52,428 nt of DNA, from the NCBI GenBank assembly GCA_964464405.1, contig CAYXFX010000004.1:1-52428 (forward strand), written 5' to 3'. The position numbers and the translations under genes are program-made. Numbering within the stretch: position 1 is the first letter of the stretch; each line of letters starts with the position of its first letter. Source of the stretch: an uncultured Candidatus Saccharibacteria bacterium (GTDB lineage Bacteria > Patescibacteriota > Minisyncoccia > UBA11713 > 2-01-FULL-45-33). Under the pieces are notes generated by a model. It ran no database searches and had not been told where the DNA came from. It was given only the letters and a program-made list of their open reading frames with translations. Shown here one piece after another: positions 5,646 to 52,426 of this stretch.

Positions 5646-5796
5646 CTTCGCCCACGCCGCTTCGCTACGCGGGCTTCGCGGTGTCGTACGCCGCAAAGTG
5701 CTTTGCACGACGTGGCGCAAGCACAAAAAAATCTATAGCTTGCAACATTTTAGAATAAAAAGCGAAGTGGCCCCGCGAAACGCAGTGAAGTGGGGC
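5643..5796. repeat. REP-like palindrome cluster upstream of GIY-YIG gene
   Basis: CCACTTCGC..GCTTCGCGG starting at the tRNA CCA, and inverse GCGAAGTGG-CCCCGCGAAACGCAGTGAAGTGGGG. Confidence 0.7.
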
Positions 5797-5804
5797 AAAA
5801 CAAT

Positions 5805-6044
5805 ATGTATTACTGTTATATCTTACAAAGTCTTAAAGATAAAAGTTTCTACGTCGGATCAACCTTTGATCTTAAAGAAAGATTCGGGCAACATAATAAT
5901 AAAGAGGCTAAATATTCTTCAAGCAAAACCCCGTTTAAAATAATTTGGTATGGTGCATTTGAAAACAAATCCAAGGCTCAAAAATTTGAGAAGTATTTGA
6001 AATCAAGTTCAGGATTCGCATTCAGAAACAAAAGGTTAATTTAA
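5805..6044 (+). CDS. Small stand-alone GIY-YIG nuclease (UPF0213/YhbQ-like), 79 aa
   Basis: YCYILQS..FYVGST..L.ER..QHN and later E..A.KFEKYLK pattern; ATG 5805 preferred over GTG 5790. Confidence 0.88.
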   Translation: MYYCYILQSLKDKSFYVGSTFDLKERFGQHNNKEAKYSSSKTPFKIIWYGAFENKSKAQKFEKYLKSSSGFAFRNKRLI

Positions 6045-6067: not shown

Positions 6068-6235
6068 CTTGCCCATCCATAGCCACGTCTTGCGTGGCGA
6101 AGGAGGGTTGCGGGTTCTTCTCCTTCGCTCTACGAGCTTCGGAAGGACTCAGTAACACTTGCCTTGCCGTAGCCTTGGCGAAGGCAGGTCATCTTGTTGT
6201 CCGCTTGCTTTGCCGTAGCTTTACGCGAAGGCGGG
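6068..6235. repeat. Four REP-like palindromic units downstream of GIY-YIG gene
   Basis: Units fit CCNCCTWCGC-N(2-13)-GCTWYGG at about 6068-6107 (-), 6120-6148 (+), 6157-6189 (-), 6203-6235 (-). Confidence 0.8.
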
Positions 6236-6410
6236 TATAGAGAAATGGATTTTTTTGATTATAAAAATCAATTCTTCTGAAAATTAAACGACTTTTCTTT
6301 TGCAAGCGAGGTTCTAACTTACTTCCGTAAAAACTTGACTTTTTTCTCAAATAGTGTACACTCTTAAACAATCTGTATCTTGAAAAATCAAGTGTTGGGA
6401 GGAAAATACT

Positions 6411-15303: not shown

Positions 15304-15724
15304 AACGCTATTTTATATAAACATTCTTCATGAGGCAATTCTGATATAAATTATTTTAGTTTCGGAAAGGTTTCCGGATCGAAGCCTACACACAACTTTG
15401 CATAACCGCAGGTCAGCGCAGGTTTCGTATCTAATTTAATGGCTGCGGATTTAGAACACCCTCAAACCCCGAAGGAGAACAAGTTTCCTACGGGGCATGC
15501 TTTTGAAATCATTTTGCCAAATCTGATACATAAATCCAAAAAGCAGAACCTCCGCCAACCCGCTACACAGAATGAACATAATATGCTAGCATCAAAGGCA
15601 GTTTAGAAATATTACTTTTACATAGCTACTTGCACGACCATTGTAGCTTTTAGGGAATAAAGATCTTGTTTTCTAAAAGCTGCAATAGGGCAGCGAAAAT
15701 TCAACCCAAAAGGAGGAAACGCCA

Positions 15725-16321
15725 ATGGGTACCGCCTCAATGACGACTGGGCAGTTTCGGGAGTTTGCCGGAGCCGTACTCCGCTCGCTTCCCGACGATC
15801 TTGACCCCACCACCGCGCAGGGATGGATCGAGAACCAGGAAAGCCTGCGCAAGATTCTCCGCGAGGCGCTCACGCCGGACGGCAAACCCGCCGGCAACAC
15901 CTACCCCCTATCCGTGGACTACGGAAGAGGCGTGGAGTGCGCGGTGAAGTCCGGTCGCTACGACTGGGCTAACTCCGATGTCACCTCCAGAAACTTCCCG
16001 ACCGAGCGGAAGGGAACGGTTGAGGTTGCGGTGGAGCTCATCCACTTCAACCGGCACATCTCAACCGGCGAGGTGCACCGCGAACTCGACAGGATGGGAT
16101 ACCGTCCGGCCGAGCTTCACGAGCTTCTCGCCTTTGGCGAGAAGTATCCGGAAGTCCAGCGCGAGTTTCTGATCGTGGCGCTTGGTTCTGTCTGGCAGGA
16201 CCGGGGCGGCGACCTCCGCGTCCCGCGCCTCAGCAGGGACGGTTCGGAGCGCACGCTGTACCTGGGCTGGGTCGAGGACGGCTGGGACGAGATCTACCGG
16301 TTCGCGGCCATCCGCAAGTAG
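15725..16321 (+). CDS. GC-rich hypothetical protein with C-type-lectin/DGR-target-like C-terminus
   Basis: 198 aa, AAGGAGG SD, about 65% GC in a sampled 60-nt line; C-terminus VPRL..DGSERTLYLGW.E.GW.E.YRFAA.RK. Confidence 0.7.
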   Translation: MGTASMTTGQFREFAGAVLRSLPDDLDPTTAQGWIENQESLRKILREALTPDGKPAGNTYPLSVDYGRGVECAVKSGRYDWANSDVTSRNFPTERKGTVEVAVELIHFNRHISTGEVHRELDRMGYRPAELHELLAFGEKYPEVQREFLIVALGSVWQDRGGDLRVPRLSRDGSERTLYLGWVEDGWDEIYRFAAIRK

Positions 16322-29177: not shown

Positions 29178-32100
29178 ATGGCTATCGTCAAGAAATATTT
29201 CTCTCGATATAGGGAGCCGTTTGGCAGTATGCCTGATTTGGTCGAAATGCAGACAGCGTCTTACGACTGGTTTTTAAAAAACGGCCTTCGCGAAATTTTC
29301 GATGAATTTACCCCTATATCAGATTATACAACCAAAGAACTTTCTTTGGAATTTCTGGATTACTTTATCGACGAACCTCGGTTTGATGAAAATTATGCAA
29401 GAATAAATAATCTTTCTTTTGAATCGCCTCTTCGTATACGCGCACGGCTTACTAACATAAATACGAAAGAAAAAAAGGAACAGGAAGTTTTTCTGGCAGA
29501 TTTTCCTTTAATGACTCCGAGGGGAACTTTTATCATTAACGGAATTGAAAGAGTCATTGTTTCGCAACTCGCGCGCTCGATGGGGGTTTATTTTAACGCT
29601 TCTATGTCACGAGGCAGAAAGCTTTTTGGCGCAAAAATTATTCCGGTGCGCGGAGTTTGGTTGGAGTTTGAAACCGAGTCTGACGGCGCAATTTATGTAA
29701 GGATCGACAGGAAAAGGAAAATTGCGGCAACCGCGCTTTTGCGAATTTTTGGAATGGAAACCAGCGAAGCAATTTTAAAGGCTTTTGAAAAAGTAGAAAA
29801 CGCATTGCCTTTTATCCAAAGAACTCTTGAAAAAGATTCTTCAAAGAACGCAAACGACGCCTACATCGAAGTTTTTAAACGAATCCGCCAAGGAGAACTC
29901 GCAACTATAGAAAACGCCAGAGAACTGGTGGGTGCAATGTTTACGAGCGAAAGATACGATATTTCAGCGGTGGGACGCTACAAATTGACGCAACGTTTGC
30001 CTTCTCTTGCTGGAAATAAGTTAAAAGAAAGCAGGGTACTTGTTTTAGAAGATTTAATTGCGATTTTGGCGGAGGTTGTAAGGTTAAATAATAATCCTCA
30101 ATCACAGCCAGATGATATTGATAATTTAGGAAACCGAAGAGTAAGATCTGTAGGTGAAATGCTCCAGCAACGCCTAAGGATAGGGCTTACACGAATGAAA
30201 CGCACAATTCAAGACAGAATGTCGACTTTGGATATTGCTACTGTAACTCCGGCCCAACTCGTTAACGCAAGGCCATTTGCCGCGGTTCTTAAAGAATTTT
30301 TTATGACAAACCAGCTTTCACAATTCATGGATCAGACAAATTTACTTGCGGAGCTTGAGCATAAAAGAAGGGTTTCTGCTTTAGGCCCCGGCGGGCTTAC
30401 TCGTGAAAGAGCTGGGTTTGACGTTCGGGACGTTCATCCTTCTTATTATGGAAGGCTTTGTCCGATCATGACGCCGGAAGGCCCAAACATTGGTCTTATA
30501 AATTATTTGGCAGGATATGCGAAAATTAACGATTTCGGCGTTTTAGAAACTCCTTACAGAAAAGTAAAAAATGGGCGGGTAACCGACGAAGTTAAATACA
30601 TGACTTCGCTTGAAGAAGTGCGGCATAAAATCGCACACGCAGGAACGGTTTTGGATGCGGGCGGGCATATTATTGAGAACTTCGTAGAAGGGCGAACCGA
30701 AGGCCAGCCGGCTTTATTTCCCAAGGCGGAAATAGATTTTATAGATATTTCAGCCCAGCAAGCGATGAGTATTTCTACGTCGCTTATTCCATTTTTAGAA
30801 CACGACGACGCAACCCGTGCGATGATGGGTTCAAACATGCAGCGCCAAGCTGTGCCTTGCATTAAGCCGGAGGCTCCCTTGGTATCAACAGGTGTTGAAG
30901 AAAAAGCTGCGCGTGATTCAGGAAGATTGATATTGGCAGGAATGGACGGTGTTGTAAGCGAAGCTGACGCAAGGCATATAGTCATAAAAAAAGAAAAAAA
31001 AGAAGAGCGGCACGATCTTTTAAGTTTTGCGAGGTCCAACAAATCGAGCATTATTCATCAGCGCCCGATTGTTAAAGCCGGAGATAAAGTAAAAAAGGGA
31101 GACGTATTAGTAGACGGCTCCGTTACTGAAGAAGGGCATCTCGCTTTAGGACAAAATTTGCTTGTCGCGTTTTTATCTTGGAGCGGAGCAAATTATGAGG
31201 ACGCGATTATACTTTCAGAAAACGTAGTTAAGAAAAATATTTTTAGCTCGATCCATGTCGAAGAATTTACTGTCGCTGTGCGCGACACAAAACTTGGCCC
31301 TGAAATTACCACTTACGACATTCCAAATGTCGGCGAGGAAAAACTTAAAGATTTAGACGAAGACGGAATTGTCCGCATCGGGGCCGAGGTAAGGGCAGGC
31401 GATATTTTAGTCGGAAAAATTTCTCCGAAAGGGGAATCGGATCTAACTCCGGAAGAAAGGCTTCTGCGCTCGATTTTCGGCGAAAAGGCCAGGGACGTTA
31501 AAGACACTTCTTTAAGAATGGATATCGGCAAAAAAGGAAGAGTAATCGGAGTTAAAATTTTTTCAAGGGAAAAGGGAGATAAATTAGAAACTGGAATTAT
31601 AAAACAAATCCGCGTTGAAATTGCGGAAATGAGAAAGGTATCAGTTGGAGACAAACTTGCGGGAAGGCACGGAAACAAAGGCGTAATTTCTCGGATTTTG
31701 CCTGTAGAAGATATGCCCTATTTGGAAGACGGGACCCCTGTGGATATAATTTTAAATCCTTTGGGTGTTGCGTCGCGTATGAATATTGGGCAAATTTTGG
31801 AAACCCACTTGGGATGGGCCGCTAAAATTTTGGGATATCATGCAGTGACGCCCACGCTTTTGGGAGCTACCGAAATAGAGATAAAAGAAGAGTTAAAAAA
31901 GGCAGGTTTACCGGCAGACGGAAAAGTTGATCTTTTTGATGGAAGGAGCGGAAATGCTTTTGACCAAAAGGTAACAGTCGGCCAAATTTACATGCTAAAG
32001 CTTGAACACATGGTTGAAGACAAGATTCATATGCGCTCGATCGGTCCTTACTCATTAATTACCCAGCAGCCTCTGGGAGGAAAAGCACAGGGAGGAGGAC

Positions 32101-32456
32101 AGCGTTTTGGAGAAATGGAAGTCTGGGCTTTGGAGGGATACGGCGCGGCGCATACTTTGCAGGAAATGCTTACAATAAAATCCGATGACGTAATGGGGCG
32201 CTCCGCTGCGTACGACGCTATTGTAAGAGGCGAGCCGTTTCGTGCGCCGAATATTCCAGCATCTTTTCATGTTTTGATTAACGAGTTAAAAGGTTTATCT
32301 TTGGATGTCGATTTAAAAGGTGTGGTGAGCTTTGTTGAGGAGGAAGAAGAAGCGGCTACGTCTAGAAAAAAAGAAGCAGCAAAAGACAGTTTTGAAGATT
32401 TTATTATCGAAGACGAAGAAGTAGAGAAAAAATCAAAATCATTAAGTAAAAAATAA
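29178..32456 (+). CDS. rpoB: DNA-directed RNA polymerase subunit beta
   Basis: QLSQFMDQ, GPGGLTRERAG, GDKLAGRHGNKG, GGQRFGEME. Confidence 0.99.
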   Translation: MAIVKKYFSRYREPFGSMPDLVEMQTASYDWFLKNGLREIFDEFTPISDYTTKELSLEFLDYFIDEPRFDENYARINNLSFESPLRIRARLTNINTKEKKEQEVFLADFPLMTPRGTFIINGIERVIVSQLARSMGVYFNASMSRGRKLFGAKIIPVRGVWLEFETESDGAIYVRIDRKRKIAATALLRIFGMETSEAILKAFEKVENALPFIQRTLEKDSSKNANDAYIEVFKRIRQGELATIENARELVGAMFTSERYDISAVGRYKLTQRLPSLAGNKLKESRVLVLEDLIAILAEVVRLNNNPQSQPDDIDNLGNRRVRSVGEMLQQRLRIGLTRMKRTIQDRMSTLDIATVTPAQLVNARPFAAVLKEFFMTNQLSQFMDQTNLLAELEHKRRVSALGPGGLTRERAGFDVRDVHPSYYGRLCPIMTPEGPNIGLINYLAGYAKINDFGVLETPYRKVKNGRVTDEVKYMTSLEEVRHKIAHAGTVLDAGGHIIENFVEGRTEGQPALFPKAEIDFIDISAQQAMSISTSLIPFLEHDDATRAMMGSNMQRQAVPCIKPEAPLVSTGVEEKAARDSGRLILAGMDGVVSEADARHIVIKKEKKEERHDLLSFARSNKSSIIHQRPIVKAGDKVKKGDVLVDGSVTEEGHLALGQNLLVAFLSWSGANYEDAIILSENVVKKNIFSSIHVEEFTVAVRDTKLGPEITTYDIPNVGEEKLKDLDEDGIVRIGAEVRAGDILVGKISPKGESDLTPEERLLRSIFGEKARDVKDTSLRMDIGKKGRVIGVKIFSREKGDKLETGIIKQIRVEIAEMRKVSVGDKLAGRHGNKGVISRILPVEDMPYLEDGTPVDIILNPLGVASRMNIGQILETHLGWAAKILGYHAVTPTLLGATEIEIKEELKKAGLPADGKVDLFDGRSGNAFDQKVTVGQIYMLKLEHMVEDKIHMRSIGPYSLITQQPLGGKAQGGGQRFGEMEVWALEGYGAAHTLQEMLTIKSDDVMGRSAAYDAIVRGEPFRAPNIPASFHVLINELKGLSLDVDLKGVVSFVEEEEEAATSRKKEAAKDSFEDFIIEDEEVEKKSKSLSKK

Positions 32457-51150: not shown

Positions 51151-51800
51151 AATTTTTCTTTTACAATATAAGCGGTTGGAGTATTGGCGCCGGGGACGGA
51201 TTTTAATTTAGGATTTTGGTCTTTAAAAAATTCAGAAACTGCGTCCGATTCTCCGTGACCTCTTAATCCGTATTCGTCGAATACAACAATTCCGCCGGGA
51301 GTTACTAGAGGATAAAAATTTCGCAATATTGCCAGTGTTCCTTCGTAGTTATCCACATCTAAATAAAGCATCGCGATTCTAAATCCTAGGTTTTGCTCCG
51401 CGTAAGTTTTTGTAGTGCGCACGACATCTCCTTCAACGAGCTCCACGTTATCTATTCCAAGCTCCGCAAGGTTTTTTAAAATAATTTCTTTGTCGGACAA
51501 AGTTTCATCATGCATGTCCAGAACTTTTTGATCTTCTTTTTTTGAAAAAGTTATATCACGGGAAGATCCAAAAAAATCAAAGCCGACAATTTTTCTTCCG
51601 GAATTCGGAATAACCAGCTTGCTTAGCTTGGCTAGCGTATAAATTCCGCTTCCTTTATATACTCCGCATTCAACAATATCCCCCGGTATTTTTTTAATCA
51701 ATTTAAGCAACTCATATCTCGAAATGATTTTCTGCAAGCGGTCTACGCCGGTATGCGCCAAAAAATCGTCATATAAATTGAGATTGTCCTGTTCTTTCAT
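51147..51800 (-). CDS. TylF/MycF/NovP-family O-methyltransferase-like protein
   Basis: PGDIVECGVYKG, GFDFF, LDVDNYE, PGGIVVFDEY. Confidence 0.85.
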   Translation of the reverse strand: MKEQDNLNLYDDFLAHTGVDRLQKIISRYELLKLIKKIPGDIVECGVYKGSGIYTLAKLSKLVIPNSGRKIVGFDFFGSSRDITFSKKEDQKVLDMHDETLSDKEIILKNLAELGIDNVELVEGDVVRTTKTYAEQNLGFRIAMLYLDVDNYEGTLAILRNFYPLVTPGGIVVFDEYGLRGHGESDAVSEFFKDQNPKLKSVPGANTPTAYIVKEKF

Positions 51801-51848
51801 TTGAGCTTAGTTTATTGAAAAAACGTTATTTTTGCAACCATCGCTAGT

Positions 51849-51890
51849 AAAAAGAAAAGGGGCTGTCCACGATGTTTTGTGGACAACCCC
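51849..51890 (-). terminator. Intrinsic terminator for the GC-rich terminal gene
   Basis: GGGGTTGTCCAC/GTGGACAGCCCC stem + TTTTCTTTT on minus strand. Confidence 0.7.
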
Positions 51891-51900
51891 AATTTTTGCG

Positions 51901-51931
51901 CCTGCCCGCCGAAGCTTTACGCGTAGGTGGG
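51901..51931 (-). repeat. Lone REP-like unit of the GIY-YIG-associated family
   Basis: GCCGAAGCTTTACGCGTAGGTGGG (51908-51931) vs GCCGTAGCTTTACGCGAAGGCGGG (6212-6235): 21/24 identical. Confidence 0.8.
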
Positions 51932-52426
51932 GACGAACCCCGACGCGGAGCCATAGCCCTCGTTGGTGCTGTCGACACAGTAGGCGACGAACTTGACCTC
52001 GCCGCCGCTGAAGCGGAAGACCGGCGCGTCCGAGAACTCGCCAACGGCATCGGGAGCGTATTCGTCACCGGGGCAGTCGATGTGCAACTGCTCGCATTGA
52101 ACGAGCCGCTCGGGATGCGACAGGATCATGCACCCTGCGATGAAGGACCCCAAGCCGAACTCGTGGGGAGCGTAGACCACGCGCACCCTTCGCACGGACC
52201 GACCGCGATGGGTCAGGCCAAACTGCGCTGGAATGAGTAAAAAGTCGTCCTTCTGCTTTTCGCCGATCATCTGAAGCGCGACGGCCGTCCGCTTCGAGAT
52301 CCGCAGGTACTTCGGGCCGAGTGCGCCCTTGCGGTAGTTGTGGAAGGTGCGGGTCTTGCCGATCAGGTCGAGGACCTTCTCGACAGCCTCGTTGTACGAG
52401 GACGCAACCTTCTCCCACCGCGGAAC
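51917..52426 (-). CDS. GC-rich hypothetical protein (5' truncated by window) with DGR-target-like C-terminus
   Basis: Frame is open to the window edge (VPRWEKVASSYNEAVEKVLDL...); ends DAPVFRFSGGEVKF..CVD..NEGYGSASGFVP. Confidence 0.7.
   Translation of the reverse strand, partial: VPRWEKVASSYNEAVEKVLDLIGKTRTFHNYRKGALGPKYLRISKRTAVALQMIGEKQKDDFLLIPAQFGLTHRGRSVRRVRVVYAPHEFGLGSFIAGCMILSHPERLVQCEQLHIDCPGDEYAPDAVGEFSDAPVFRFSGGEVKFVAYCVDSTNEGYGSASGFVPTYA

Follow-up and report, generated by a model that had tools for sequence, protein, structure and literature searches.

Rickettsia palindromic elements (RPEs) are short dispersed palindromic repeats of 100-150 nt that lie in frame in genes and are translated, and their presence varies between orthologous genes. 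REP/BIME elements are GC-rich imperfect hairpins of ~30 nt, which are extragenic and occur with RAYT (REP-associated tyrosine transposase) genes, while the Neisseria Correia repeats and the enterobacterial ERIC and other MITE-type repeats are 100-150 nt long, with terminal inverted repeats and target duplications. A hairpin of a different kind is found in the Bordetella phage BPP-1 DGR, where the IMH is accompanied by a downstream hairpin/cruciform and where hairpins downstream of the VR are reported to aid homing (PMC5006420).

The window, which is the whole stretch of 52,428 nucleotides analysed here, is the complete contig C4 of a 795-kb, 16-contig genome of ~40% GC, and the gene that runs off its end closes in a hairpin unit that can be set beside each of these systems. 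Like RPEs, the units of this family are dispersed, lie in ORFs (35 of 41 sampled) and vary in presence; unlike RPEs, they are ~30 nt long, come from a different phylum and number 1-6 copies per genome, and the window copy is in a stop-bearing frame, truncating and replacing the gene end with no read-through. With REP/BIME elements the unit shares its form, a ~30-nt GC-rich imperfect hairpin, and RAYT-like genes are present in the genome and in 17 of 21 relatives, but the units are mostly intragenic and few, and the RAYT-like genes are flanked by different hairpins. As with Correia, ERIC and MITE-type repeats, a small non-autonomous repeat at a gene 3′ end changes C-terminal codons, the stop or the 3′ UTR; unlike in those repeats, no target duplication or terminal repeat is seen at the window unit. 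Finally, the unit abuts an IMH-equivalent constant segment, where a homing-enhancing hairpin would be expected from the BPP-1 system (PMC5006420). In contrast to that hairpin, the window unit is not conserved in its gene family, is lacking in relatives that bear a TR and has cost the IMH-like segment 9 nt, and the gene itself has no cognate TR or RT. The event is a further example of an already known kind, and its interest lies in being a clean, comparatively documented case in which a tiny dispersed hairpin repeat rewrites a gene end, with four new residues and a new stop. No description of such repeats in Patescibacteria was found in the literature searched, and nothing relevant on REPs in this group was found in that library.

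The gene and its DGR family

The last 510 nt of the window, at 63% GC, make up an open frame on the minus strand, which reaches past the contig end (Table 1). The gene begins on contig C9, whose end carries its start codon and encodes MTTHIVADDT, the same N-terminal sequence as in the homologue at locus L002. The last ~200 nt of C9 also hold the conserved 5′ leader hairpin of the cassette, ATGAGGTAAGC...GCTTACCTCAT, with two hairpin units in its loop by comparison with loci L001 and L004. A second GC-rich gene (63%) in AT-rich DNA lies at 15689-16318 on the plus strand of the window, and its sequence is unrelated to that of the gene at 51917.

Table 1. Features of the window discussed in the text (positions in nucleotides from the first letter of the window).
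Feature	Position	Strand	Remark
DGR variable-protein (target) gene, 3′ part, 169 codons	51917..52426	-	5′ end cut by contig end
Variable-region (VR) equivalent	51932..52055	-	homologous to the TR/VR repeats of relatives
Retained IMH-like constant 3′ VR segment, GGCTCCGCGTCGGGGTTCGTC	51932..51952	-	last 9 nt (TCGCAGTAG) missing
Hairpin unit, imperfect, GC-rich, 31-32 nt	51900..51931	+	complement gives codons P-T-Y-A and the TAA stop
Codons supplied by the unit	P 51929-51931; T 51926-51928; Y 51923-51925; A 51920-51922; stop 51917-51919		
Terminator-type hairpin, GGGGTTGTCCAC-loop-GTGGACAGCCCC and T run	51849..51890	-	12-bp stem, 8 GC pairs; kept downstream of the unit
Sister unit with the same rare TTTAC loop	6205..6237	+	downstream of the GIY-YIG gene at 5790-6044
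Further family member	6160-6190		near the unit at 6205..6237

Searches of the 169-aa protein against Pfam, NCBIfam and PDB sequences returned no match, and an AlphaFold2 model of the fragment (pLDDT 69.8, pTM 0.72) gave no Foldseek match in the PDB at E<1, so that the C-type-lectin (or Ig) fold expected to carry the VR is at most putative here. Its homologues comprise 1525 representatives at E<=0.001, and 27 + 63 (~90) homologous loci, nearly all from Patescibacteria and with identities of up to 88%, were available for comparison. These genes are 55-65% GC within flanks of ~40% GC, and in the protein alignment a hypervariable block is followed by a constant GSASGF[VL][SP]Q and the stop. At L002, a 131-nt repeat lies 465 nt downstream, where all 16 of its 16 mismatches to the gene end fall at adenines of the downstream copy, and bAvd (6e-15) and RVT_1 (4.6e-23) genes follow this TR. 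The VR/TR pairs of L008, L011, L013 and L015 show the same adenine mismatch pattern. Adenine-only mismatches between TR and VR, together with bAvd and RVT_1 genes in relatives, therefore identify a DGR variable-protein family, so that the "DGR-like target" of the initial annotation is confirmed for the gene family.

Against the L002 TR, the VR of the window has 39 mismatches, 22 of them on TR adenines, which make up 33 of the 124 positions. In five VR/TR pairs the homology extends through ...CG[C/A]AGT, so that in the window the final 9 nt of this IMH-like segment have given way to the unit; 21 of ~30 nt are left, and the segment is not intact. At this 3′ edge the VR reads ...CG C AGT A(G/A) and the TR ...CG A AGT C in all five pairs (L002, L008, L011, L013 and L015), a fixed C/A and A/C difference that looks like the distinction between IMH and IMH* and not like mutagenesis.

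The hairpin unit at the gene end

On the plus strand, positions 51901-51931 read CCTGCCCGCCGAAGCTTTACGCGTAGGTGGG, and the unit has the form CCTGCCCGCCGAAGC-TTTAC-GCGTAGGTGGG. On the minus strand the frame of the gene ends ...GGC TCC GCG TCG GGG TTC GTC and then, from the first base of the unit onward, CCC ACC TAC GCG TAA AGCTTCGGCGGGCAGG. Direct reading of these codons bears out the claim that the palindrome supplies the terminal residues (PTYA) and the stop of the GC-rich gene, and the reported 21/24 identity with 6212-6235, in the same orientation and here spanning 51908-51931, is correct to the base. One of the three frames of the unit on each strand carries a stop in the loop, and the window copy is read in such a frame. 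The palindrome is imperfect, with 6+2 pairing around a 3x3 internal loop, and RNA folding gives -8.7 kcal/mol on the strand of the gene (z -0.4) and -13.1 kcal/mol on the plus strand (z -2.0). A compensatory A-T/T-A change between the two window units, in the GWA/GWA internal loop, was considered and rejected, GAA/GAA (an A.A mismatch) being the commonest form in relatives.

The window unit matches the family consensus at 27 of 31 positions, unit 1 of L088 at 27 of 32 and unit b of L003 at 25 of 31; several sister units resemble it to much the same degree, with 24-27 matches of 31-32. Combining the copies at 51908 and 6212 into a degenerate 20-mer gives a pattern that finds these two sites only, with 0.02 expected, in what is a circular test. 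An Rfam search gave a chance-level match only.

The junction is well supported. Logan contigs from four groundwater runs in two studies span 51300-52091 with 0-1 differences and cross the junction without any; since four assemblies run through AT-rich DNA, terminator, unit and GC-rich gene alike, the arrangement is not an assembly chimera. In other Logan contigs the match is limited to 51900-51931 with both flanks divergent, which sets the boundaries of the unit and places it in other contexts. The Logan contigs stop near 52090-52135, where many related sequences of other organisms stack, and this pile-up explains why contig C4 ends within the gene.

The 3′ ends of homologous loci

MAFFT wrongly placed the unit against the spacer, and the junctions were therefore judged by eye and from pairwise alignments. 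Most of the ~90 loci and of 150 representatives have the canonical ...GSASGF[VL][SP]Q end, with LPQ, VPQ and VSQ dominant among the C-terminal tails of the latter. In nucleotides, the canonical 3′ end is ...GGGTTCGTC TCG CAG TAG, followed by a CTTGA-rich spacer of ~62-65 nt and then by CGCCGCAAAAATGGGGTTGTTCAC-loop-GTGGACAACCCC and a T run, a hairpin homologous to the terminator of the window and present in most loci. Of this arrangement the window still has GGGTTCGTC and the terminator GCAAAAATTGGGGTTGTCCAC...GTGGACAGCCCC TTTTCTTTTT, and the ~71 nt between them, namely the last 9 nt of the native ORF and the spacer, are swapped for the 32-nt unit. As this native sequence is missing, a deletion was also involved and the change is not a simple insertion. 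Homologues without the unit end differently from the window gene, mostly in the canonical motif, and thus do not share the 3′ sequence that the unit provides here; the refuting observation named in the initial annotation is not seen.

Sister units have entered the same gene end elsewhere. In L088 the protein ends ...GFLPSLR, with a unit in the orientation and frame of the window copy, the native CGCAGTGA directly after it and a second unit before the terminator. The L091 protein ends ...GFLPAEAR, with the native GTCTCGCAGTAG and the spacer still there, and in L092 the unit is read through, adding 10 aa; the insertions in L088, L091 and L092 are independent. The closest relative, L003 (87-88% aa identity), carries a sister unit with the rare GCGTAAAGC loop and the same right-hand junction (CGCA..AAAATGGGG beginning at the border). 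GC-rich hairpins also occur in the spacer (L003a, L005a, L014 and L024), before the terminator (L003b, L088 unit 2, L087 and L099) and inside the terminator loop (L003, L009 and L026), while spacer deletions without units are seen in L026, L070 and L006. A strong hairpin hotspot in the DGR 3′ region is not claimed, as a uniform scan gave a modest excess of 1.37/kb vs 0.82/kb in the flanks. At L016:3484-3560 and L120:270-340 the ORF end holds a local inverted duplication, CCCCAGTAGTAGAAC-GCTTCGC-GTTCACTACGGGG, between CAGTAG repeats, which by its sequence appears to be a snap-back footprint and not a fixed unit.

Status of the DGR in this genome

Neither a TR for the window VR, for which ...GGCTCCGCGTCGGGGTTCGTCTCGAAGTC would be the matching sequence, nor a paralog of the gene was found in the genome, and no other IMH-like motif was found there. 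No RT or Avd gene flanks the window gene, which has a TylF methyltransferase downstream, and the end of C9 holds nothing of the kind. The only DGR of the genome is intact (C1:89,735-91,733; VR 89735-89861, TR 90227-90353, 16/16 mismatches at TR adenines), with bAvd on the minus strand and an RT, and its target belongs to a family other than that of the window gene. The TR of this C1 DGR gives no alignment with the window VR and is unrelated to it. Contigs from four runs of 2017-2020 give a clean assembly of the VR with 0-1 differences; contigs hide rare variants. As no matching TR is present in the genome and the VR does not vary across the four metagenomes, we take the gene to be, most likely, an orphan DGR target that is "frozen"; counter to this, a TR could sit in unassembled DNA of the 16-contig MAG.

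Two observations may bear on the past of the gene. At 51963, a T of the window is replaced by C in run X1 (2017), a coding-strand AAC>AGC change at a VR position equivalent to a TR adenine; this single SNP is a weak hint of past adenine mutagenesis and counts somewhat against a frozen target. At C1:47,930-48,130 lies the C-terminal remnant of a second DGR-type RT, with 36% identity to residues 274-354 of the L002 RT, possibly a partner of the orphan target that has since decayed.

The initial annotation had placed the unit where a DGR cis hairpin or IMH would be. The position is right, in that the unit lies precisely at the 3′ border of the IMH-like segment homologous to the TR. A role as the cis hairpin is unsupported: the conserved downstream terminator (51859-51890) is kept separately, TR-bearing relatives have no unit there, and a cognate TR is lacking. 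In the locus set, 1 of 15 TR-bearing and 12 of 25 TR-less loci have units in the 3′ region (Fisher p=0.013, relatedness ignored), a difference that is suggestive at most because the loci share ancestry and because the length of the contigs partly limits which loci can be called TR-less. Our reading is that the cis region is decaying in an orphan frozen target, and not that it holds a functional hairpin.

Origin of the gene end

Probably, a low-copy dispersed mini-element has come to lie as a passive passenger at the end of a frozen orphan DGR target that has lost its native end and spacer. From the present structure, the other native end in relatives, the independent insertions of sister units there and the recurrent spacer deletions, we infer the following route. 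Units would usually be tolerated inside coding DNA, and this one would most likely have entered at the end of the ORF, where L088 has a unit, or directly ahead of the terminator, where L003 and L088 have one, or at both places. The stretch between may then have gone by a deletion or through recombination of two like-oriented units such as the pair seen in L088. In the gene as it stands, the native last three codons (S/P-Q-stop) and the CTTGA-rich spacer have been lost, and ...GSASGFV runs directly into the unit, which is read as P-T-Y-A up to the TAA in its loop. The consequences are a trivially altered C-terminal tail and an IMH-like segment short of its last 9 nt, with the cassette terminator kept, and the unit would have settled there once the DGR cis region had come under weaker constraint. 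The similar distance of the unit to several sisters leaves the exact route, and orthology with the L003 and L088 copies, unproven, and a deletion that stopped exactly at the unit edge is somewhat coincidental, which counts against this explanation.

On a rival reading, a single event, independent of the L003 and L088 copies, inserted the unit and removed the ORF end and spacer together, for instance by template switching or gene conversion from a unit-bearing locus, or by enzyme-mediated insertion with adjacent deletion. Both borders of the replaced segment are natural ends of the unit, the events at L016 and L120 are of a snap-back, template-switch type at exactly this ORF end, and the sister unit with the rare TTTAC loop in the window makes an intragenomic donor possible. 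We nevertheless regard such a one-step replacement as unlikely: the clean insertions in L088 and L091 keep the native sequence and spacer deletions arise separately (L026 and L070), so that two ordinary steps suffice, and no donor of higher identity was found.

A functional co-option, in which the unit hairpin replaces the DGR cis hairpin by the IMH and the VR is still diversified by an unassembled TR, is improbable. The same holds for its variant, in which insertion at the IMH is a selected way of turning hypermutation off. The place of the unit at the VR/IMH boundary, the A>G SNP at the AAC codon and the homing role of hairpins described for the Bordetella phage DGR would fit it, as would at least five independent hairpin insertions in the last ~12 nt of the gene family, where a TR accompanies none of the six loci concerned. 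Against it, presumably active TR-bearing relatives do without a unit there, the family keeps its own conserved hairpin separately, and the unit hairpin is weak on the strand of the gene; the search for a cognate TR, Avd or RT was negative at both contig ends and in the rest of a genome whose rated completeness is 100%, and the VR is near-uniform across the runs. The same insertions, none of them next to a TR, are the basis of a broader and very doubtful idea, that the IMH boundary of Patescibacteria DGR VRs repeatedly captures hairpin mini-elements, or that selection favours them there. Retrohoming DNA transactions (nicks, priming and template switches) might favour entry there, or an insertion might disable homing and so "freeze" a useful variant; if true, insertion at the IMH boundary would be a natural off-switch for targeted hypermutation.

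An artefact, meaning a k-mer mis-join of a foreign GC-rich contig or a coincidental similarity to 6212-6235, might be suspected from the GC step of 40% to 63% exactly at the unit, the stop of contig C4 510 nt beyond it and the identical 18-mer with which contig C16 starts, but it is already contradicted, and almost certainly wrong, as four independent assemblies from two studies cross the junction without differences, the terminator downstream of the unit and the gene form one conserved cassette, the GC-rich gene family sits in AT-rich hosts everywhere, and a looser family pattern has 62 matches vs 3 in a reversed control.

The passive-passenger explanation is thus the one we retain, and the locus looks like the passive remodelling of a gene that lost its mutator. 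It would illustrate how a DGR target cassette decays after loss of the mutator, with hairpin insertions and deletions building up in the cis region by the VR boundary. The biological consequence for the window gene is probably negligible.

The unit family and its labels

The looser pattern, GCCGWAGCN{2,6}GCGWAGG, gives support independent of the 20-mer, with the reversed pattern as control. Of 41 related genomes, 29 have matches to it, with 1-6 copies in each, those in the window genome being at 6166, 6212 and 51908, and the extended family consensus, read on the plus strand, is CYTGYCCGCCGWAGC-loop-GCGWAGGCGGG. The family is therefore dispersed, as the initial annotation had it, and its presence differs between homologous loci, the clean insertions in L091 and L088 falling at the same gene end. 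The labels attached to it fare less well. Among 40 units sampled in relatives, not one lies within ~1.2 kb of a GIY-YIG gene, the nearest case in a cross-check of PF01541 positions being 1.4 kb away, and adjacency to such a gene is confined to the two units at 6.1-6.2 kb of the window. Since the units sampled in relatives are mostly inside ORFs and in no case next to a GIY-YIG gene, the name "GIY-YIG REP" does not fit. "REP" in its extragenic sense does not apply either: among the 41 units sampled in relatives, 35 lie within long ORFs, one ends an ORF and five are intergenic, and copies are few. In sum, a repeat-derived gene end and a dispersed family are supported, while "GIY-YIG", "REP" and a DGR cis function are unsupported. 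For annotation, the case is a warning that unusual C-terminal tails among the proteins of this large, unannotated family are repeat-derived, and that the "GIY-YIG REP" label should not spread.

Flanks of the 41 units in relatives yielded no insertion-site consensus, and a "CC^GCA" target site, suggested by L088, L003 and the window, is not claimed on that account. The units are dispersed, lie in ORFs and vary in presence among homologous DGR-target loci, as RPEs do, with a window hairpin of weak stability. Given their intragenic setting, low copy number and distance from GIY-YIG genes, and given that the RAYT-like genes are flanked by other hairpins, the family behaves like RPE-type in-frame mini-elements and not like extragenic REPs or a GIY-YIG satellite.

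RAYT-like PF01797 (Y1) genes are present at 1-8 each in 17 of 21 relatives as well as in the window genome, and their flanks hold unrelated hairpins; no link to the unit family was found there. The window genome has two such Y1-transposase genes, at C1:107772-108023(-) and C6:32311-32532(-), of 220-230 aa and with the HUH motif, each with its own hairpin on both sides (TGATAGAAGTTCGACTTCTATCA; CTTAGCAACCCGGTTGCTAAG) in a REPtron-like layout. Just downstream of the second, a GAPDH gene at C6 ~32,100-32,200 contains an in-frame unit, CCGCCGAATCTTTAGCAAAGGCGG, translated as ...KSAESLAKAEE.... Further along the same contig, at C6:48,700-49,061, another GC-rich gene crosses the contig end and is followed by units of the same general type (CCTGCCTTCGCAGGCCGTAGCCTGCTTCGGCAAGG).
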